In this document: positions 144 through 19,712 of the stretch, in pieces | Layout of the letters: every line of letters begins with the position of its first letter | How positions within the stretch are numbered: position 1 is the stretch's first letter | DNA from: Actinomycetota bacterium | GTDB taxonomy: Bacteria > Actinomycetota > UBA4738 > JBBDTT01 | Length of the DNA: 27,068 nucleotides | Assembly (NCBI GenBank): GCA_040904285.1 | Contig: JBBDTT010000181.1 | Coordinates: 1-27,068 of the forward strand | Direction: 5' to 3' | Notes under the pieces: model-generated | Told to the model about the DNA's origin: nothing | Database searches by the model: none | The model's input: the letters and a program-made list of their open reading frames with translations, nothing else | Position numbers and translations under genes: made by a program

Positions 144-285
144 TAATCGGGCCCGATGAGAGCTGCCGGAAGGCCACCAGGGCTCCCGCATCACCCAAAC
201 CCCACGAGTCGCTGGGTCAATGTCTGGACTTCAGGGTCCGACTGAGTTCGGATCAGGGGCACAGACGCAAGGCCGCGTAGCCGCT

Positions 286-378
286 ATCTTCGACCGAAAC
301 GTGGGACTCGAGGGCGTCCCGGACGGCTATCGGGCGATGGCCGACCGTGAGTCGATCAAGGTCATGGTGACGCCATGA
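286..378 (+). pseudogene. C-terminal relic of a zinc-dependent alcohol dehydrogenase (MDR family)
   Basis: Translates as IFDRNVGLEGVPDGYRAMADRESIKVMVTP*, matching the typical MDR/Zn-ADH C-terminus (VFD...GYRAM..R..IKV). No ADH-like sequence or start codon is recognisable upstream. Confidence 0.6.
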
Positions 379-390
379 AGGGACCCGAGC

Positions 391-404
391 CTGCCGCGCG
401 GCAG
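391..404. terminator. GC-rich palindrome, possible terminator hairpin
   Basis: Perfect palindrome CTGCCGCGCGGCAG 12 nt after the ADH-relic stop. No U-tract. Confidence 0.3.
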
Positions 405-587
405 TAGGCCAACGACCTGAGGCCCACGAAGACGCTCGTTACGGGACCGGCGGAAAGCGTCGTTCCAGCCGAGCAAGGTCGTGCAAGACGGACCGTCGCC
501 GCCTGGGTCTGGGGGTTCGAATGGGTCCTGCCGAGGGCACAGCGACGCCCGGCGAGACGCTATTCGAACCCCGTTATTCGCTCGACC

Positions 588-1490
588 TCACGAGGCGCGT
601 CGGTCCGCAGCCTCCTTGGATCCCGACCTGCGGCCGGCACGCTTGAGCTCGTCGACGAACTTCAGCGCCTCCCGACGGACGTGATCCGACAGCCGCGGAT
701 CGATGATGCTCTTGATCCTGGCCGCCTCGATATCACGTGCCGCCTTGGTCTTGAAGTCGAGGATCAGCTCCGCGGCGCTCAGCACCTCGTCCATCTCGGG
801 GTTCTTCGTGAGGGCCTTGGCGACCGTCCCGGGCGCCTTGACGAGGGCTTTCACCGAGCCCCCCGGCCCCGGCGTCAGCGACGAGAAGACCTTGCTGGCG
901 TTCATGGCCTCATCGATCAGGTCGAACTCATCCGGGTCCAGCAAGTGGGCGACGAACCGGGCGTGCTCGTCCATGATGTTGCTCCAGAAGGGCACGACCT
1001 CTTCCCGCTCGTACTCGGACTCGCGTCCGCCGAGCTGCTCGAGCCGGCGAACCCAGCGCTCGGCCTCGTGGCGGGTGTGATCGAAGAAGAGCGGCCAGAC
1101 GAGGCTCCGCAGGGTGCCGTTGCGCTGCGCGTCGCCGAGCGTGGCCTTGTACTCGATGAACGGCTTGATCTTGTCGACGATGCCCTTCGTGAATCGGGAA
1201 AGGCTGCCGGCATCGGGCGGGCCGGCTGCATCGACCTGCTGATGGAGCCGCTCGAAGTCCCGCGAGAACCGCAAGGCCTGGGTCCGCTCCTGGGGGGCGA
1301 GCTCCTTCGGCATCAGCAGGGCGAAGAACAGGCCGTGCTCGGACATGATGTCGGTCGCGAAGCGGGCGTCTGCCCAGGCGTGATGGGTCGGGTCCTGGTC
1401 GTCCTCGCGGGGCACGACGACCGGCTTCTCGAACGGCTTCTCCACCCGTCGGTTGCCGCTGCGCGTGTACGTCGTGAAACCACGGATCAT
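588..1490 (-). CDS. DUF2935 domain-containing protein (two repeats)
   Basis: Repeated motifs IMSEHGLFFALLMP / IMDEHARFVAHLLDP and DHTRHEA / DHVRREA. ATG at 1490 is preceded by an AGAGGGGG SD-like sequence. Confidence 0.8.
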   Translation of the reverse strand: MIRGFTTYTRSGNRRVEKPFEKPVVVPREDDQDPTHHAWADARFATDIMSEHGLFFALLMPKELAPQERTQALRFSRDFERLHQQVDAAGPPDAGSLSRFTKGIVDKIKPFIEYKATLGDAQRNGTLRSLVWPLFFDHTRHEAERWVRRLEQLGGRESEYEREEVVPFWSNIMDEHARFVAHLLDPDEFDLIDEAMNASKVFSSLTPGPGGSVKALVKAPGTVAKALTKNPEMDEVLSAAELILDFKTKAARDIEAARIKSIIDPRLSDHVRREALKFVDELKRAGRRSGSKEAADRRAS

Positions 1491-1551
1491 GCCGATCCCC
1501 CCTCTGGGCGCTCCATACCGCCTCCCCCTCGGCCGGCCTTCCACGGCTCGT

Positions 1552-1761
1552 TCATGACTCGTTGTAGTCCTTCTTGGGCTGGTCCAGGTCGCCGGCTCGC
1601 TGCTGGATCTCGATCAGCTCCAGCAGGTTCTTCTTGGCCTCGGCCACGCCGGCATGTTTGATGGTGTCCGTCTGTCCAGCCTTCTTGAGATCGTCCTCGA
1701 CGATGTTGGCTGGATCGCCGTGGGCCTCATACGGAAGCTTGCAGCCGCACGTGTAGCACAT
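1552..1761 (-). CDS. Small hypothetical protein with N-terminal CxxCxC + His motif (putative metal binding)
   Basis: MCYTCGCKLPYEAHGD..., SD-like AAAGGGA upstream, GC-rich third codon positions, co-oriented with DUF2935. Confidence 0.75.
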   Translation of the reverse strand: MCYTCGCKLPYEAHGDPANIVEDDLKKAGQTDTIKHAGVAEAKKNLLELIEIQQRAGDLDQPKKDYNES

Positions 1762-1968: not shown

Positions 1969-2580
1969 ATGTGTGCTGATTCGGCGCGACGCGGCAAGTA
2001 CCGGCTCCGGCGGCGGGCCGAAACGATGCTCCAGACCCGCCGCCGAATCGCCGAGGCCGCGCTGGAGCTCCATGCAAGCGTCGGGCCGGCCGAAACCACC
2101 ATCGCCGCCATCGCCGAGCGGGCGGGTGTGCAGCGCCAGACGGTCTATCGCCACTTTCCGGATGACCTCGCCCTGTTCGAGGGTTGTGTTGAGCTTCAGG
2201 TGAGCAAGGACCCGCCGCCCGACCCCGAGCCTTGGCGGCAGATCGCCGACCCGCGGGAACGCCTCACAGTCGCCCTCGCCGACGTCTACGCCTATTTCCG
2301 AAGAGGCGAGAACATCTTGGCGAACATCTCGCGCGACATGCCGGCGTTGCCCGCGCTCCGGCAAGCCCATGAGGGCGTCACCGAGCACTGGGTCACGCTC
2401 CGGGACGTGCTGGCCGAGGGATGGGGAGTTCGCGGACCGCGCCGCACCATGCTCGTGGCCGCAATCGGCCACGCCTTGGAGTTCACCACCTGGCAGTCGC
2501 TCGTTCGACGACAAGGCCTGTCGGCCAAGAAGGCCATCGCGGTCATGGAAGAGTTCATCGCCTCGATCGTGGGTTCATGA
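1969..2580 (+). CDS. TetR/AcrR family transcriptional regulator
   Basis: N-terminal HTH: RRRIAEAALELHASVGPAETTIAAIAERAGVQRQTVYRHFPD. Confidence 0.9.
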   Translation: MCADSARRGKYRLRRRAETMLQTRRRIAEAALELHASVGPAETTIAAIAERAGVQRQTVYRHFPDDLALFEGCVELQVSKDPPPDPEPWRQIADPRERLTVALADVYAYFRRGENILANISRDMPALPALRQAHEGVTEHWVTLRDVLAEGWGVRGPRRTMLVAAIGHALEFTTWQSLVRRQGLSAKKAIAVMEEFIASIVGS

Positions 2581-2593
2581 ACCGTATCTGTGG

Positions 2594-3070
2594 CTAGGCC
2601 TCCCCCAACCGATCCTGCCAATACTTCTTCCGTGCGAGGCGCCACTGATCGGCGGCCGCGTTCACGTCGGCGGCTCGCGGACCCGAACTGAGCCATTCGA
2701 GCAGGGCGGGAACCGCGTCTCGCCACGCCACGCCCGGCGGCCACTGCCCGGGCAGCGGTTCTTCGAGTGGCCACGGCGCCGGATCCAGCGCCCGTTGGTC
2801 ACCCGTCATCGCCGCCAGGAGAACGTCCAGCGGCTGGGTGTTCATGCCGTCCGGTTGGATATCGCACGTCCATTGCGAGCGGTCCCGGACGATGGTCACG
2901 GTCTCGGCTCCGCCTCGCGCGAGCTCCACGACGACGTCGCCGAATCCGGCGTCCGGGCCTCCCGCGGTCCGCTCGAGGACGAATCCGTTCGCGACGAGCC
3001 AGTCCAGCGTCGCCCGCACGTCGTCGTTGGCGGCCTCGCGCGCGTACTCGAATACCTCGTTGGTGGCCAT
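2594..3070 (-). CDS. Hypothetical protein (158 aa)
   Basis: MATNEVFEYAREAANDDVRATLDWLVANGF... fills the gap between TetR and SDR with protein-like composition. The upstream part of the 349-aa ORF is the antisense shadow of the SDR. Confidence 0.65.
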   Translation of the reverse strand: MATNEVFEYAREAANDDVRATLDWLVANGFVLERTAGGPDAGFGDVVVELARGGAETVTIVRDRSQWTCDIQPDGMNTQPLDVLLAAMTGDQRALDPAPWPLEEPLPGQWPPGVAWRDAVPALLEWLSSGPRAADVNAAADQWRLARKKYWQDRLGEA

Positions 3071-3133
3071 CGGATCCCGCTCCCGATCGGGCAGTATGGA
3101 GGCCTTGAACCGACCCGGAAGGATCAGGCAAGC

Positions 3134-3970
3134 ATGAGCTCCGCCGAGCCGCCGGCCGATCGCCCTCGGGGGTCGCGCCTCGAAGGGAAGGCCGCGGTGA
3201 TCGTGGGGGCCGGGCAGACCCCCGGCGCCACGATCGGCAACGGCCGCGCCACCGCGCTGCGCTTCGCCCAGGAAGGGGCGCACCTGCTGCTCGTGGACAG
3301 AGACGACACCTCGGTGAAGGAAACCGAGGCGATGATCCTCGACGCGGGAGGTCGGGCCGAGGTCGTGGTGGTCGACATCGCCGGGCCGGACGGGCCCGCG
3401 GAGGTCCGTTCGCGCGCGCTGGAGGCGCTCGGACGCATCGACATCCTGCACCACAACGTGGGTATCGGCGCCGGAGACAACACCCCGACGAAGCTCACCG
3501 AAGAGGCGTGGGATCGGATCATCGACGTGAACCTGCGGGCGATGTGGCGAACGTGCAAGGAGATCGTCCCCATCATGCGCGCGCAGAACAGCGGCGCCAT
3601 CGTGTGCGTCTCGTCCATCGCGGCGGTGGCGTCGGCGCCTCATCTCACCGCGTACAAGGTGTCGAAGGCCGGCGTGAATGCGCTGGTGCAGTCCCTCGCG
3701 ATGACGAACGCTCGCTACGGCATAAGAGTGAACGCGATCATGCCCGGGCTGATCGAGACCCCAATGGCCGTGGACGCCGCGGCACAGGCATTCAACCTCT
3801 CGCGCGACGAGGTCGCGCGCGCACGCGACGCGATGGTCCCCCTCGGGAACAAGCAGGGCACCGCGTGGGACGTCGCGAACGCGGCCCTGTTCCTCGCCTC
3901 GGACGAGGCGGCGTTCATCACCGGGGTCTGCCTCCCCGTCGACGGCGGGCAGAGCGCGAAGGTGGGCTGA
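3134..3970 (+). CDS. Short-chain dehydrogenase/reductase (SDR, FabG-like)
   Basis: Gly-rich cofactor loop VIVGAGQTPGATIGNGRA, NVG, SS, YxxxK (YKVSK), IRVNAIMPG, ITGVCLPVDGG. Confidence 0.92.
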   Translation: MSSAEPPADRPRGSRLEGKAAVIVGAGQTPGATIGNGRATALRFAQEGAHLLLVDRDDTSVKETEAMILDAGGRAEVVVVDIAGPDGPAEVRSRALEALGRIDILHHNVGIGAGDNTPTKLTEEAWDRIIDVNLRAMWRTCKEIVPIMRAQNSGAIVCVSSIAAVASAPHLTAYKVSKAGVNALVQSLAMTNARYGIRVNAIMPGLIETPMAVDAAAQAFNLSRDEVARARDAMVPLGNKQGTAWDVANAALFLASDEAAFITGVCLPVDGGQSAKVG

Positions 3971-7620: not shown

Positions 7621-8688
7621 TCAGGCTCGCGCGAAGCGGAACATCCGGTTCGCCAGCACGAACGAGACCACCACCCACCCGGCAAGCATCAGCAGTTGGG
7701 GACCGGTCTGGGTGATCGAGAGCCCGTCCACCGAGACCGTCCTCAGGGCTTCGAGCAGCGGGGTGAGGGGGAGCCACCGGACGACGGCCTGAACGACCTC
7801 GGGAAGGTCCTCGGTCGGGAAGAACACGCCCGAGAGGAACATCATCGGCAGCGCGACCGCCTGCGCGATGCCCTGGGCCGCGTCGGGGTTCGAGGCTCGG
7901 CCCGCGACGGCGAACCCGATGTTCAGGAACACCAGGTTCGCAACGGTGGCCAGCACGAAGATCCACAGCACGTTGCCGTAGACGTTCGCGCCGAACGCGA
8001 ACACCCCCACCGCCAGGATGAGGCCGGCCTGGAAGACCGACAGCACCAGCCGAGCCAGCACCTGGGACACCAGGAACTTCGACGGCCGGAGCGGCGTTGC
8101 CAGGATCCGCTTCAGGATCCGCTGCTCCCGGTACCGGGAGATCGAGATGGCCATGCCGGTGATCGCGAAGTTCATCACGCCCATCGCCACCAGGCCCGGG
8201 AGCAGGAAGTCGTAGTACTCGATCGAGCGGCCCTCGACGCCCACGGCCTCGATGGCCAGGGGCGGCCGGTCCACCCCGGCCAGACGCAGGTTCAAGCCGC
8301 CGACGATCCGCTCGATCGCCGACAGCGCGAACTGGTTCGACTCGAAGTTGCTCTGGTTGTAGAGGACGTCGATCCGGGCCGGACCGCGGGACGGCTTCGG
8401 CACCGCCAGCACGACGTCCAGATCGCCGTCGGTGACGTCCCCCCGGGCCGCGTCCAGGTTCGCGCGGGCCTCGACCTCGAAGGACTCCACCTCCCGCAGC
8501 CCGGACACCAGGGCGTCGCCGACGTCGGACTCCGACTCGGCGACCACGCCGATGGAGACCTCCGGCGCCTGGGAGAAGTCGAACAGGCCGAACACCACGG
8601 CGAAGATCACCGGGAACGCCATCGCCCAGAACAGGGCCTGCTTGTCGCGGTACAGCATCTTCACGCTCGCCACGAAGAGCCTGCGCAT
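7621..8688 (-). CDS. ABC-2 transporter permease with extracytoplasmic domain
   Basis: MRRLFVASVKMLYRDKQALFWAMAFP, YYDFLLPGLVAM, YREQRILKRILATP, FLSGVFFP. Alternative GTG start at 8697 (GTGA overlap). Confidence 0.88.
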   Translation of the reverse strand: MRRLFVASVKMLYRDKQALFWAMAFPVIFAVVFGLFDFSQAPEVSIGVVAESESDVGDALVSGLREVESFEVEARANLDAARGDVTDGDLDVVLAVPKPSRGPARIDVLYNQSNFESNQFALSAIERIVGGLNLRLAGVDRPPLAIEAVGVEGRSIEYYDFLLPGLVAMGVMNFAITGMAISISRYREQRILKRILATPLRPSKFLVSQVLARLVLSVFQAGLILAVGVFAFGANVYGNVLWIFVLATVANLVFLNIGFAVAGRASNPDAAQGIAQAVALPMMFLSGVFFPTEDLPEVVQAVVRWLPLTPLLEALRTVSVDGLSITQTGPQLLMLAGWVVVSFVLANRMFRFARA

Positions 8689-15376: not shown

Positions 15377-15442
15377 TCGAGAGCCATTGTGCCCCACGTC
15401 CGGAGAAACGCAGGACGGACCCGGAAGTGAAGCGGGTGGAAG

Positions 15443-16525
15443 CTAGAGAGAAAGTCGCGGCCGGGGCTGGGCCGCCACCAAAATGAGTGACAATTCCTCG
15501 GGCGGTACCCCTGCCTCAGACGCGATGTCCAACAAGGTGTGGCCGGCTTCCTCCGCTAGGCGAACGGCTTCAGAAAGAAGCCGAGGTGCCTCTGGAGGAC
15601 CGAGGTTGCCGGGCTCATCGACACGCCACCCACGCGCGGATAGACCCTTTGATGCCCTGATGTATTCAGGCTCCTTCATTACGCGCAGCGTGCGCGCACG
15701 GTAGAGCAGCGAAGCAATCGATGTGCCCCAGCGGCCCTTCAGGGCCAAGAGTCGATTCCAGTCCACCCTTGCAGGCAGCTCATTGCGAATATCGCGCTGT
15801 GGCATCAGAAGCGCGGCGGCGAACTGTTGAGCCTGTCGCTCCGCCTCGGCTTGAGGGTAATCCGGGCCGTGCATCACGAGGTGTCCGAGTTCGTGAGCGG
15901 CATCGAATCTGGAACGATCGCGCTTCCCCTTATCTGCGCCAAGCAGGACCACCGGATGATCCTCAAACGCAACGGAGAAAGCATCCACCTGCCGGGTCGC
16001 CAAGAGCGGACGCGCCAAGAGAACCCCATGGCCCTCCATCAACGCAGCGACGTCGGCGACGGGTCCGGCATCGAGGCCCCACTGTCTCCGCACCTCTTGC
16101 GCCAGCATTTCTATTTGGTCAGGGCCGTCCATCGGCGTCGCGGATAGCTTTGGAACTTCGACTGCTGGCAGATCTACATATCGGCCTAGCGCGGCTCCGA
16201 AGCGTCTTAGGATCGCGGCGAAAGCTCGAGCTCGTCTGCGTTCCTTTGCCGGAGCCGTCCTGAGGCTGCGGAAGAATGCAGTGGCGACGCCGCTTGATCC
16301 ATCTGTGGCAAAGAACTGAAGTGGGAATCGAAGCTCCCGACCTATATCCTCCAGCGTTCCAACGGACGGCCGTACCAGACCTTGCTCTATCTGGCTGATT
16401 GCTGCGCCGGAGATACCCGTCAGCCTCCCTAGTTCGACCTGTGTGAGCCCGCGAAGTTCGCGCGCCAAACGCAGTTGGGAGCCGTCGAACAGATCTCGTA
16501 CGCCGCGTGGGTCCAGGCTCCCCAT
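15443..16525 (-). CDS. XRE-family HTH fused to ImmA/IrrE-family Zn metallopeptidase (DUF955)
   Basis: [35 protein letters not shown]; FRSLR; VDAFS; [16 protein letters not shown] (HExxH); [14 protein letters not shown]; [12 protein letters not shown]. Confidence 0.9.
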
Positions 16526-16531
16526 TGCTTA

Positions 16532-16537
16532 AGTGTA
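16532..16537 (-). promoter_or_regulatory. -10 element (TACACT) for a probably leaderless regulator mRNA
   Basis: Minus strand reads TACACT-taagca-ATG: a TAnnnT hexamer 6 nt before the start codon, with no SD. Confidence 0.5.
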
Positions 16538-16599
16538 GGCAGATAACCTCGCGCCTCGATGAAGCCAATCGGGATTCAGGGTCGATTTTATAAGTAGCG

Positions 16600-16644
16600 T
16601 GATATAATTAGGGGAGAGGATTAAGCGCGCTACCCTACAGGAGG
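16600..16644 (+). promoter_or_regulatory. Extended -10 promoter (TGnTATAAT) and SD for the nucleotidyltransferase operon
   Basis: TGaTATAAT at 16600-16608; AGGAGG at 16639-16644, 5 nt before ATG 16650. Confidence 0.65.
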
Positions 16645-16649
16645 GATCT

Positions 16650-17666
16650 ATGTCAATTGAAGACTGGCTGCGGAAAGCCCGTGAGGCGATCGAGGTAACC
16701 GACGACGAGCTGAAGGAGGCGCGGCGTCGGCGGGAGCTTATTGCGGAGGAGCTGCGGGTTGAGTTCCCTGGCGCTCGGGTCTATTTCAACGGCTCCCTCG
16801 CGCACGGTGACGCGCTGGATCCGCTCAGCGATTTTGATCTGGGGGTGGTCATCCCGGACCCAGCCCAGCAATTCGGTCCTGGCAAGGCCAGTGCTGACGA
16901 GCTCAAGACTCGTGCATCCGGCGCCATTCGGCGGGCTCTGATCGCCGAATACCCAAAGCTGCGTGTTGAGGTCGAGGGCCGCAAGCGGTCTCTCCTCGTT
17001 CGCTTCTCGCACCCGGTCACTCCCCGGGCCACGGACTTCACCGGTGACGTGATCTGCGCCGTCGACCATCCTGTTCGCGGGCTCTGGATCCCGAAGGATT
17101 CCACATGGGACCGGTCGGATCCCGAAACGCACACGAGGCTGGTTCTCGAAGCCAATAAGAAGACGTCCGCGGGCTTCGCGAAGACGGTCCGTTTGCTGAA
17201 GTACTGGAACGGGGCTCATGACGGGGTCTTCTGTTCGTGGCATCTGAAAGTCCTCGCGCTACCTACGGTCTCTTCGGGGCCGCAGATCGACAGTCTTCGA
17301 AGCTTCTTCGCTGGAGCCATCCGGCAGGTGACGGCCGGCCCGACACCTGACCCCGCCTTCGTTGGCCCATCCATCCTCCCCCAAGTAGACGCCGAGGAAG
17401 CCGTCAAGCGACTCCGGGAAGCCCTGGATCTCGTCGAGGCCGCCATCAAGGCCGAGGCAGAGGGACGTCCGCTGGGCGCCCAGGCGGAGCTGTCAAACCT
17501 GTTGCCTGAGATCGTGCCAGCTCCAGACTCTTCCTCGCTCCGTGATGAGGAGCGCGATGCCGCCAAGGCCCGCTTGGCCTCACGCGGATCCGTCTCGGTG
17601 GGGAGCGGGACCGAAATTTCCCTACCCCGAAACAGGGGGTGGAGCGACGATCCCTCTCCGAACTGA
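16650..17666 (+). CDS. cGAS/DncV-like nucleotidyltransferase (CD-NTase/SMODS), putative CBASS cyclic-oligonucleotide synthase
   Basis: Pol-beta fold motifs G48-S49 (FNGSLAHG), D61-x-D63 (SDFD) and D133 (FTGDVI), then GLWIP, WDRSDPETH, VRLLKYWN, SWHLKVLA. Adjacent to an E2-like gene and a TM gene. Confidence 0.8.
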   Translation: MSIEDWLRKAREAIEVTDDELKEARRRRELIAEELRVEFPGARVYFNGSLAHGDALDPLSDFDLGVVIPDPAQQFGPGKASADELKTRASGAIRRALIAEYPKLRVEVEGRKRSLLVRFSHPVTPRATDFTGDVICAVDHPVRGLWIPKDSTWDRSDPETHTRLVLEANKKTSAGFAKTVRLLKYWNGAHDGVFCSWHLKVLALPTVSSGPQIDSLRSFFAGAIRQVTAGPTPDPAFVGPSILPQVDAEEAVKRLREALDLVEAAIKAEAEGRPLGAQAELSNLLPEIVPAPDSSSLRDEERDAAKARLASRGSVSVGSGTEISLPRNRGWSDDPSPN

Positions 17667-17709
17667 ATCCGCTATCGGTCTGACGTGGACGAGCCCTGAC
17701 CCGCAGGCC

Positions 17710-18198
17710 ATGCTGACTTTCGAATGGGATGCCAGAACCAATCTTCGGGAGTCTCTCGTCGCCTCCTACCGTCCCACCATCACGAGGTATCTGATCCGCG
17801 ACTTGTGGGTTCCCGGCGACCTTCCGCAGGATCTGTCCATTGAGTTCTGGAGGCATCCGCCGTATGAGACCTACGGGCTCGCGCCTCATGACTATCCTCT
17901 GGTGTACAGCTGGACCCCGCGTCTCCGAAAGCACGCGTTCTGCGCTGGCCCGAGATGCCTTTGCAAGACAAGGCGTAGGCAGCGGAGGCGGACTCCGTCC
18001 TCGGACCCGAAGCACAGCGGACCGCTTTGCCTCTGGTACCCCCGCGATGAACGCTCGAAGCGCTGGACGTATTCTGACGGTCTGTATGCGCTCGTGGAGA
18101 TCGCGAGACGGCATCTCTTCTTTGAATTGGAGTATTCGATCTCCAGGATCTGGCTTGGCGAAGAGGCACCTCACGGCATTCCGGGCGCAGCGGCATGA
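17710..18198 (+). CDS. Stand-alone prokaryotic E2-like (UBC-fold) protein, as in type II-short CBASS
   Basis: YPLVY...KH...PLCLWYP...RW...L...HL..E...W.GEEAPHG pattern with putative catalytic Cys at codon 18028-18030. Start uncertain: ATG 17710 or in-frame ACG 17647. Confidence 0.7.
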   Translation: MLTFEWDARTNLRESLVASYRPTITRYLIRDLWVPGDLPQDLSIEFWRHPPYETYGLAPHDYPLVYSWTPRLRKHAFCAGPRCLCKTRRRQRRRTPSSDPKHSGPLCLWYPRDERSKRWTYSDGLYALVEIARRHLFFELEYSISRIWLGEEAPHGIPGAAA

Positions 18199-18701
18199 TG
18201 CTCGCTGGCGCCGTGAATTGGCACGAGACGTTTTGGGGCGCCATCGCCGTGCCAATGGCGGCGGCTGCCCTCGCGGCCCTCGTTGCGGTATGGGGCTACA
18301 GACGGGAGCAGTGGACGAAGCGTCGCGATGCTCTGAGAACACTCTTTAGCGAGGCACTTCGAGCTGTGTCTGATTACCAAGAGCTTCCCTACCTGATCAG
18401 ACGCCGATCGAAGACCTCACCTATGACCGCTGCGGAGTTGATCGCGCGCGCCAGCGATGTTCAGACCCGCCTGGACCTCCACGTGGCTCGGCTACAACTT
18501 GAGTCAAGCGAGTTGGGCGAGGCCTACTTGCACCTCGTCCGGACGGTTCGGTCTGAGGCAGGGCCGCAAATGACCGATGCCTGGAGATCGCCCACTATTC
18601 GAAGCGACAAGGGCGTCCCCCTGGGGCTTGCGTACCCGCGAGATGCTACAGAGCGGGCTAGGGCAGCTTGCCTTGTAGTGATGCGGGCACACCTGGCGTA
18701 A
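18195..18701 (+). CDS. Single-TM hypothetical protein, putative CBASS effector
   Basis: TM segment FWGAIAVPMAAAALAALVAVWGY followed by a helical soluble domain (LFSEALRAVSDYQELPYLIRRR). ATGA/TGATG overlap with the E2 stop. Confidence 0.7.
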   Translation: MMLAGAVNWHETFWGAIAVPMAAAALAALVAVWGYRREQWTKRRDALRTLFSEALRAVSDYQELPYLIRRRSKTSPMTAAELIARASDVQTRLDLHVARLQLESSELGEAYLHLVRTVRSEAGPQMTDAWRSPTIRSDKGVPLGLAYPRDATERARAACLVVMRAHLA

Positions 18702-18709
18702 ACAGCGGA

Positions 18710-18724
18710 GGCGGGCTGCCCGCC
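18710..18724. terminator. Hairpin between the convergent effector and etfA genes
   Basis: GGCGGG-CTG-CCCGCC; no U-tract. Confidence 0.35.
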
Positions 18725-18749
18725 GCCTGCATGGGAGTGACCAGGTGGG

Positions 18750-19712
18750 CTAGCCCTTGCGCTTCTTCACTTCCTCCGTCAGCTGCGGGAGGATCTTCAG
18801 CGCGTCGCCCACGACGCCGAGGTCGGCGATCTTGAAGATCGGGGCCTCGGGGTCCTTGTTGATGGCGATGATCCGCTTCGACTCCTTCATGCCGACCAGG
18901 TGCTGGGTCGCGCCGGAGATCCCGACCGCGATGTAGACGCTCGGCTTCACGGTCTTGCCGGTCTGCCCGACCTGGTAGCTGTACGGCACCCAGCCGGAGT
19001 CGACGATCGCCCGCGTGGCGCCGGTGGCGGCCTTGCCGATCGCGGCCGCGAGCTCCTCGATCAGCTTGAAGTTGCTCGCGTCCTGCAGACCCCGGCCGCC
19101 GGACACCACGACCGCCGCGTCCTCGAGCTTCGGCCCGGTGGCCTCCTCCTCGTGGCGCTCGGTGCGCTTCGCCTTCTTGAGGTCGTCTCCGATCTCGGCG
19201 TTGACGGCGACGACGTTCGCCGATCCTCCGCTCGGTTCCGCCGGGAACGACTTCGGGCGGAAGATGACGAGCTTGGGATCGGGACCGCCCAGCTTCACGT
19301 CCACGATCTTCGTGGCCCCGAAGATCTGTGTCTGGGCCGTGTCCGTCGAGGGCAGATCGCTCGCGTTGCTCATCAGCGTCGAGCCGGTGAGGGCCTGCAG
19401 GCGGCCGGCCACGTCGCGGCTCGGGTAGGTGAGGCCGAACAGGATCAGGTTCGGCTGGTGCTCGTCGACCAGCTGCTTCAGCGCGTGCGCGGCCGGCTGC
19501 GCCAGGTGGTCGTCGTAGACCGCGTCGTCGCTCGCGTAGACGGTCGCCGCCCCGTGCTCGCCGAGGGTGGCGGCGGCGTCGGTCGCTCCGGGCCCGAGGG
19601 CCACGGCGGCCACCTCCGCCCCGTCGATCGAGCGGGCCTTGGTCAGCAGCTCGAGAGCGCCCGAGTTGACCTTCCCGCCGGTGACGTCCGCGTAGATCCA
19701 GATCTTGGCCAC
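18750..19712 (-). CDS. etfA: Electron transfer flavoprotein alpha subunit
   Basis: [64 protein letters not shown]. Confidence 0.95.

Follow-up and report, generated by a model that had tools for sequence, protein, structure and literature searches.

A predicted type II-short CBASS island with a 1TM effector and a divergent single-chain HTH-M78 regulator in an actinobacterial genome

In the E2-type (type II-short) CBASS (an antiphage signaling system based on cyclic oligonucleotides) of Serratia marcescens, SmCdnG-SmE2 (PMC12948482; PDB 8HSB), the gene for a cGAS/DncV-like nucleotidyltransferase (CD-NTase, hereafter the cyclase) is followed by that for a stand-alone E2 with a catalytic cysteine, without E1 or JAB, and the effector gene comes next in the same operon. 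The Serratia E2 binds the C-terminal region of the cyclase, trims the residues after the C-terminal glycine, and links covalently (PMC12948482). A second system that serves as a reference is the DNA-damage switch formed by the regulator pair CapH and CapP of Escherichia coli MS115-1 and Thauera sp. K11 (Lau et al. 2022; PDB 7T5T and 7T5U), in which a helix-turn-helix (HTH) protein of the XRE type and an M78 metallopeptidase with an HExxH motif are encoded divergently from the CBASS operon and share its promoter region; the groove of CapP for single-stranded DNA (ssDNA) is built by its C-terminal GAF domain, a cysteine switch loop occurs in some CapP proteins only, and the cleavage site of E. 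coli CapH lies between F82 and R83 (10.64898/2026.05.16.725639). Fused CapH-CapP proteins have also been recorded: Lau et al. (2022, bioRxiv 10.1101/2022.04.27.489752) list 15 CBASS with such fusions without studying them, at least four of which are type II-short systems of actinobacteria whose effector is a phospholipase (Table S1), and the term "1TM" appears once in that table, for a type II-short system of Streptomyces with a separate capH and a truncated capP. Effectors of this one-transmembrane (1TM) class (Millman et al. 2020; PADLOC models PDLC00665/00666) have been counted among the CBASS membrane effectors (PMC12480259). Here, we describe a locus that holds a cyclase, a stand-alone E2, a 1TM effector, and a divergent single-chain HTH-M78 regulator (termed REG) in a 27,068-nucleotide (nt) stretch of an Actinomycetota bacterium (contig JBBDTT010000181.1; the whole stretch is called the window herein).

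The locus is a 3.3-kb island with four intact genes in the open reading frame (ORF) listing (Table 1), and it is very probably a horizontally acquired E2-type CBASS abortive-infection cassette with a divergent HTH-M78 regulator. This reading is carried by the set of genes present, the catalytic residues conserved in their products, the membership of these products in known families, the conservation of the cyclase-E2-effector trio in other genomes, the recurrence of the regulator, and the insertion of the island into a syntenic slot. The original prediction, made from the sequence alone, had described a divergent regulator with an HTH and an HExxH motif and three codirectional genes behind an extended −10 box, and the four ORFs were found as described. 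It had also assigned the trio to the type II-short architecture, which agrees with the PADLOC family models, the conserved neighborhood, and a controlled complex prediction, and had likened the regulator to CapH/CapP in an actinobacterial setting, with which the Pfam, PADLOC, and Foldseek results and the divergent orientation are in line. As stated at the outset, the island lacks genes for E1, JAB, HORMA, and TRIP13; it holds only the four genes between syntenic core genes, and no additional ORF of ≥60 amino acids fits inside.

Table 1. Coordinates of the features discussed (positions in the window)
Feature	Positions	Strand	Basis or remark
Horizontally acquired island (predicted), whole cassette	15412..18753	.	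Synteny and composition
REG, single-chain XRE HTH + M78 (ImmA/IrrE/CapP-like) metallopeptidase, 360 amino acids	15443..16525	-	Pfam, PADLOC, AlphaFold2
Divergent promoter region	16526..16649	.	124-nt REG-cyclase intergenic region
CD-NTase (oligonucleotide cyclase), 338 amino acids	16650..17666	+	PADLOC PDLC00779, invariant catalytic residues
Cyclase C-terminal tail, residues 325-338, R329-G330-W331	17622..17663	+	Conservation and modeled E2 interface
Stand-alone E2, 162 amino acids, catalytic C107	17710..18198	+	PADLOC PDLC00869, invariant residues
Cys/Arg-rich E2 insertion, ~25 amino acids (residues ~76-100)	17935..18009	+	Between H75 and C107
1TM effector, 168 amino acids, N-out transmembrane helix + cytoplasmic four-helix bundle (predicted)	18195..18701	+	PADLOC PDLC00666, AlphaFold2, hydropathy

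The PADLOC cyclase model PDLC00779 matches the cyclase over its full length (9e-116), and the GS pair, the DxD motif, and the third aspartate noted earlier (G48-S49, D61, D63, and D133) are the same in all nine cyclase homologues aligned. Searched against the PDB, the single sequence matched Pseudomonas aeruginosa CdnD entries alone (2e-15), and a profile of the nine homologues had its best match, nearly full length, in P. aeruginosa CdnD 6P82 (4e-27), followed by E. coli CdnC (6e-8), another CdnD, an Enterobacter cAAG synthase, and a CdnE, with no clade-G entry at an E value of ≤1. The cyclase appears nearest to CdnD/CdnC and not to clade G, an affinity taken from the ranking of PDB matches and not from placement in a tree; since 74% of the cyclases of E2-CBASS belong to clade G (Xiao et al., PMC12948482), it would fall into the non-clade-G minority. 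It is also unlike SmCdnG in length, the Serratia protein having about 400 amino acids. A single-sequence scan of the genome contigs gave no confirmed relative of the cyclase, and a comparison with the phage collection gave no match.

That the enzyme is instead a non-signaling Pol-beta nucleotidyltransferase (a toxin-antitoxin MNT, a CCA-adding enzyme, or similar) and the operon not a CBASS, an outcome against which the original prediction had asked to be checked, is extremely unlikely. Pfam taken alone would allow it, its sole matches being NTP_transf_2 (3e-5) and, below threshold, SMODS (E value of 0.029), and RefSeq labels the relatives on plasmids "nucleotidyltransferase" and "hypothetical protein" only, the cyclase homologues being named just "nucleotidyltransferase." The full-length PADLOC match argues against it, however, as do the profile matches to solved CdnD, CdnC, and CdnE structures, with nothing else better than an E value of 0.67, and the fact that an E2 and a CBASS-type effector always come after the cyclase gene.

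The E2 assignment is supported by the PADLOC E2 model PDLC00869 (6e-26), and residues H75, L106, C107, W109, D113, and W119 are invariant in 12 E2 homologues; the previously noted LCL cysteine is the catalytic C107 (L106-C107-L108). Pfam and NCBIfam returned nothing for this protein, and PHROGs returned nothing for either the E2 or the effector. The longest E2 ORF opens at a GTG at 17542, inside the cyclase gene; as the homologues and the 158-position PADLOC E2 model begin at the ATG at 17710, this ATG is most likely the start. With it, the cyclase and E2 genes are 43 nt apart, and the 125-nt overlap that the GTG would give falls away. The stop codon of the E2 gene and the start codon of the effector gene overlap as ATGA.

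The likeness to SmCdnG-SmE2 may extend to the contact between the two proteins. A prediction of the cyclase-E2 complex scored 0.71 (0.71, 0.74, and 0.71 in three runs), compared with 0.00 for the best control; among complexes with a solved structure, 58 of 80 attain the 0.71 mark, and among mismatched pairs, 2 of 110 do. In the modeled interface, the confident part joins cyclase residues 298-337 to E2 residues 11-13, 33-37, 74-78, and 107-110 and to the C-terminal helices of the E2. Within it, cyclase residues 325-337 lie against E2 residues 74-78 and 107-110, which places the cyclase tail on the region of the catalytic Cys107, and the model supports a binding of the E2 through this tail, as in the Serratia pair, where an extended C-terminal region of the cyclase contacts the E2. 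R329 is invariant in 9/9 cyclases; the next residue is G, A, or S, the one after it is aromatic, and a variable tail, 2 to 9 amino acids long, ends the protein. The window cyclase reads RNRG-WSDDPSPN, with the small residue G330 preceding the tail. The segment R329-G330-W331 is the putative site of E2 processing and attachment.

The trio is kept together in other genomes, another point that had been put forward for checking. It was found in 8 loci in a first neighborhood comparison, and a scan based on the effector alignment found the full cyclase-E2 pair ahead of the effector in 50 of 80 named loci, all 80 from Actinomycetota. A full-length cyclase has been lost in 10 of the 80, and the effector gene is split in several.

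These losses demonstrate that decay of such loci occurs, and the window E2 itself carries a lineage-specific insertion of about 25 amino acids with the sequence AFCAGPRCLCKTRRRQRRRTPSSDP, which includes three extra cysteines and the stretch RRRQRRR and is bracketed by a repeated AAGCAC (Lys-His). It is not shared by the 11 other aligned homologues and is thus unique among the 12; 10 of them have no insertion here, and that of the remaining one (L025) is unrelated. The cassette might accordingly be considered a decaying or inactive passenger, disabled by this insertion or by other changes. We regard this as very unlikely, since the four ORFs are intact and every invariant catalytic residue is present, translational coupling is retained, and the cyclase-E2 interface is modeled confidently with the insertion outside it. 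The insertion keeps the reading frame, and neither of the two alternative frames looks better.

Membrane effectors are the largest class of CBASS effectors. The effector of the window is a direct member of the 1TM class (PDLC00666, 1.5e-45), with the same operon position and the same size and without any difference at the family level. The one transmembrane helix that had been predicted corresponds to a single hydrophobic segment at residues ~14-34 (Kyte-Doolittle hydropathy of 2.1). There is no lysine or arginine ahead of this segment and there are 5 in the 16 residues behind it, a distribution from which the C-terminal part should be cytoplasmic. An AlphaFold2 model from a 30-sequence alignment (mean predicted local distance difference test [pLDDT] score of 93) is all helical; the transmembrane helix runs on as a long stalk (residues 9-62) that packs with helices 79-103, 105-131, and 150-167. 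A Foldseek search of the model against the PDB gave no match at an E value of ≤0.001, the matches in the AlphaFold DB and ESM Atlas are uncharacterized clusters only, mostly actinobacterial, and Pfam and NCBIfam gave sub-threshold noise or nothing. VIA-align put sensor domains with a four-helix bundle, from kinases and chemoreceptors, on top (Z of 8-10); these were dismissed as relatives, the similarity being of the kind found for helical bundles in general, for which a Z of ~13 is expected by chance.

The invariant or near-invariant effector residues are R48, Y61, E63, P65, Y66, R69, R70, R71, R119, E121, and W130, a set of arginines and aromatic residues that would suit a nucleotide ligand. 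In an exhaustive profile search, the family comprised 1013 clusters (50% identity) at an E value of ≤1e-3 and 750 at ≤1e-10. We found no Pfam model, solved structure, or published mechanism for it, and the papers found in the literature count 1TM effectors, none of them studying one. We tentatively propose, as a possibility and not as an expectation, that 1TM proteins might form an unstudied class of cyclic-oligonucleotide receptors, with a four-helix bundle unrelated to SAVED, STING, CARF, and the Cap15 beta-barrel, in which the arginine/aromatic patch would bind the signal and the one transmembrane helix would disrupt the membrane.

The effector family pairs with several cyclase clades and architectures, and the 1TM protein is therefore a modular CBASS effector, found in at least three CBASS architectures. 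In loci of the Actinoplanes type (L111 and L106, Actinoplanes/Winogradskya), the effector directly follows a cyclase of another model (PDLC00789/00788; PDLC00789 1e-130) without an E2, a type I-like arrangement. The Virgisporangium locus (L097) has the effector after a cyclase of the PDLC00789/00788 type that is preceded by an E1-E2-JAB fusion, a full type II system. In a further locus (L043:1631-4492), a member of the family lies directly after a 755-amino-acid protein with the Pfam "probable sensor domain DACNV," and neither a cyclase nor an E2 is encoded close by; the family may serve a non-CBASS conflict system, too.

REG differs from CapH and CapP in being one polypeptide. Pfam finds an HTH_3 domain (1.4e-12) and a Peptidase_M78 domain (2e-17) in it, with the HELGH motif at residues 211-215. 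The AlphaFold2 model (pLDDT of 91) has its best PDB match by Foldseek in Thauera CapP 7T5T (E value of 1.3e-5), the alignment spanning 173 columns of CapP's 278 residues, and the next in Deinococcus IrrE/PprI; the N-terminal domain resembles that of CapH (TM-score of 0.80), among many HTH proteins. Residues H211, E212, H215, and E229 are invariant in 30 REG homologues, and so is the pair F85-R86, which lies in an AFFRSLR segment 13 residues past the HTH, is present in all aligned fused regulators, and resembles the F82-R83 site of CapH. As CapH is cut at that site and F85-R86 is invariant in the REG family, we infer that REG might cleave itself between F85 and R86. The family has at least 1680 clusters (90% identity) at 1e-20, and REG homologues of 360-440 amino acids are likewise fused. 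In the public gene call on the contig (P0172), the protein starts at an internal methionine and has 229 amino acids, without the HTH, so automated annotation may miss the repressor half of such proteins.

The position of REG recurs as well. A divergent HTH+M78 module is present in 12 of the 50 trio loci (2 fused and 10 split). In loci L016, L019/L047, and L048, the same trio has a fused homologue of ~50% identity divergently upstream, so REG is not a stray neighbor of the CBASS operon; a homologue with 26% identity fills the divergent slot in L023, and in ten Streptomyces-type loci as well as in L017 and L046, it is occupied by split CapH and CapP, such as those of the known pair. Beyond this trio, 3/3 sampled REG homologues (47-54% identity) are divergent to other CBASS types, namely, two type III systems, one with S-4TM and the other with SAVED, and a type II system with E2-E1-JAB.

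This recurrence bears on the possibility that REG is the antitoxin (or an orphan antitoxin) of a RosmerTA-type toxin-antitoxin module that happens to lie beside a CBASS without a regulator. The RosmerTA antitoxin RmrA (PADLOC models PDLC03943-03956) shares the full-length composition of REG, an HTH, an M78 domain, and a helical C terminus, and 14 RmrA models match REG over its full length, the best of them (PDLC03955, 5e-95) far above capP (4e-16) and capH (1e-8); the NCBIfam "spr1629 family repressor/antitoxin" model also matches, below its cutoff. In addition, in L015, a metagenomic copy of the cyclase-E2-1TM operon, the regulator slot (238-1622, minus strand) contains a Gp49/HigB-like toxin and a 341-amino-acid HTH protein that matches the PADLOC candidate PDC-M03B, and no HTH-M78 protein. 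Unlike in RosmerTA, however, no gene for an RmrT-like toxin lies beside REG, which has a core EamA gene downstream on its own strand and the CBASS operon upstream, and its conserved partner is the CBASS operon, as seen from the recurrent divergent pairs, the substitution by split CapH and CapP, and the CBASS neighbors of the sampled homologues. That REG belongs to a separate toxin-antitoxin module is thus very unlikely, and we retain the reading of REG as the regulator of the cassette.

Between REG and the cyclase gene, an extended −10 box TGATATAAT (TGaTATAAT) was found at 16600-16608, 41 nt ahead of the cyclase ATG, and a Shine-Dalgarno sequence GGAGGG precedes this ATG at 16641-16646. A promoter scan for two hexamers gave 0 sites because there is no −35 element, and the putative operon promoter is called solely from the extended −10 box; in two related loci, TGcTAGAAT and TGgTAAGGT stand at about the same place. 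Of the 8-mers in the promoter region, only AAGTGTAG at 16531-16538 is shared with the corresponding regions of L016 and L019. On the minus strand it reads TACACT, a −10-like box 6 nt ahead of the REG ATG, and as the REG homologues also align from residue 9 on, the REG mRNA is probably leaderless and the 360-amino-acid ORF the real gene. Exact inverted or direct repeats were not found in the promoter region, and an imperfect 8-bp inverted repeat at 16609-16637 was dropped as an operator candidate, not being conserved in L016 or L019.

The horizontal acquisition of the cassette is suggested by its borders and its composition. Nucleotide synteny with a genome of the same genus (G401, locus L030) ends at 15411 and picks up again at 18754, and the gene order DUF309-like, GNAT-like, EtfB, EtfA, EamA is retained there. 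An unpublished genome (G088) figures in a single row of the Etf synteny comparison, and none of the conclusions draws on it. The four island genes have a GC content of 0.61-0.63, compared with ~0.71 in the flanks, and a third-position GC content of 0.63-0.73, compared with 0.93 for EamA and 0.96 for EtfA on either side. Relatives of the cyclase are found on actinobacterial plasmids, e.g., the mobilizable plasmid pSA01 of Sinomonas. The island borders show no integrase, repeat, or credible tRNA. In the other genome, the slot (G401:C3 ~2460-3173) is occupied by an unrelated ORF for a 190-amino-acid Pro/Ala-rich lipoprotein-like protein with a host-like GC content of 72%; because a different gene is found there, the position between EtfA and EamA may be a variable hot spot. 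An insertion site shared with other cassettes was rejected, as the flanking genes of the window recur next to the cassette in none of the other loci (0 recurrences).

From these parts, the following mechanism can be proposed. By homology with the Serratia CdnG-E2 pair, the E2 would bind the C-terminal region of the cyclase, trim the tail after G330, and hold the cyclase in a Cys107-linked or isopeptide-linked covalent state that controls its activity. Upon infection, the cyclase would make a cyclic oligonucleotide, which may be a cyclic trinucleotide, given that the nearest solved relative is a CdnD that makes cAAA. The cytoplasmic four-helix bundle of the effector would read this signal, with R48, R69-R71, R119, Y61, Y66, and W130 as candidate contacts, and the effector would then oligomerize and damage the membrane. 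REG would repress the operon through its HTH until it is inactivated by M78 self-cleavage upon a stress signal, plausibly at F85-R86; this signal need not be ssDNA, as REG lacks the GAF domain of CapP.

Several observations weigh against the reading of the island as a working CBASS of this kind. As the cyclase is not of clade G, carrying over the Serratia mechanism is an extrapolation, and its match to the NCBIfam model CBASS_cyclase_b (90 bits) is under the 200-bit cutoff. The best PDB profile match to the E2 is indeed the E2 of the Serratia E2-CBASS (8HSB_B), with the cysteines aligned, and it is a weak one (E value of 0.14), so the window E2 is remote from SmE2; its insertion adjoins the active-site loop and might change or weaken its function. 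Part of the complex score may stem from solved E2-CBASS complexes known to the prediction model. For the effector bundle, the only resemblance is to four-helix sensor domains of a generic kind, and ligand binding by it is for this reason a conjecture. A single transmembrane helix and the 25-residue Cys/Arg insertion further set the effector and the E2 apart from the Serratia system. In REG, residues 285-351 form helices only, without a GAF domain, and the protein contains 0 cysteines and hence no cysteine switch, so the ssDNA-sensing groove cannot be assumed for it. No conserved palindromic operator was found in the promoter region upon comparison with L016 and L019. Finally, the source genome is a metagenome-assembled genome (MAG) that is 62% complete.

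The original prediction had not recognized the combination of effector and regulator. Neither of the two has been characterized experimentally, and to that extent this holds; both are already catalogued, however, the effector in PDLC00666 and the fused regulators in Lau et al. Indeed, each part and each pairwise combination is already catalogued, and tools of the PADLOC type should already recognize the cyclase, the E2, and the effector, so that the locus adds little to the cataloguing of defense systems. Its value may lie elsewhere. It is a compact, intact example of the 1TM family, which is sizeable and reused with several cyclase clades, without a structure, ligand, or mechanism. Its regulator belongs to the single-chain HTH-M78 proteins, which are very abundant in Actinomycetota, stand beside every CBASS type sampled, and do without the GAF domain and the cysteine switch on which the published model of CapP activation rests. 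As a non-clade-G E2-CBASS, it could also be used to test how general the covalent control of the cyclase by the E2 in Serratia is.

Elsewhere in the window, ARAGORN called an 87-nt tRNA-Gly(tcc) at 7978-8064 on the minus strand, beneath long ORFs; an Rfam search of the window returned nothing, with no tRNA at the gathering score, and the call is probably spurious. A match to the Prok-JAB family was found on a different contig of the MAG (G000:C12:7866-8213, minus strand), unlinked to the island; this family also matches in 8 of 14 control genomes. A cyclase with 45.5% identity is encoded on a linear plasmid recorded as "Variovorax sp. PBS-H4 plasmid 2" (L132, NZ_LR594676.1), where two codirectional hypothetical genes follow in the positions of the E2 and the effector and are candidates for these by position only. 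These genes adjoin an Lsr2-family gene on a record assigned to a betaproteobacterium, and since Lsr2 is a hallmark of actinobacteria, the taxonomic assignment of the record looks doubtful.

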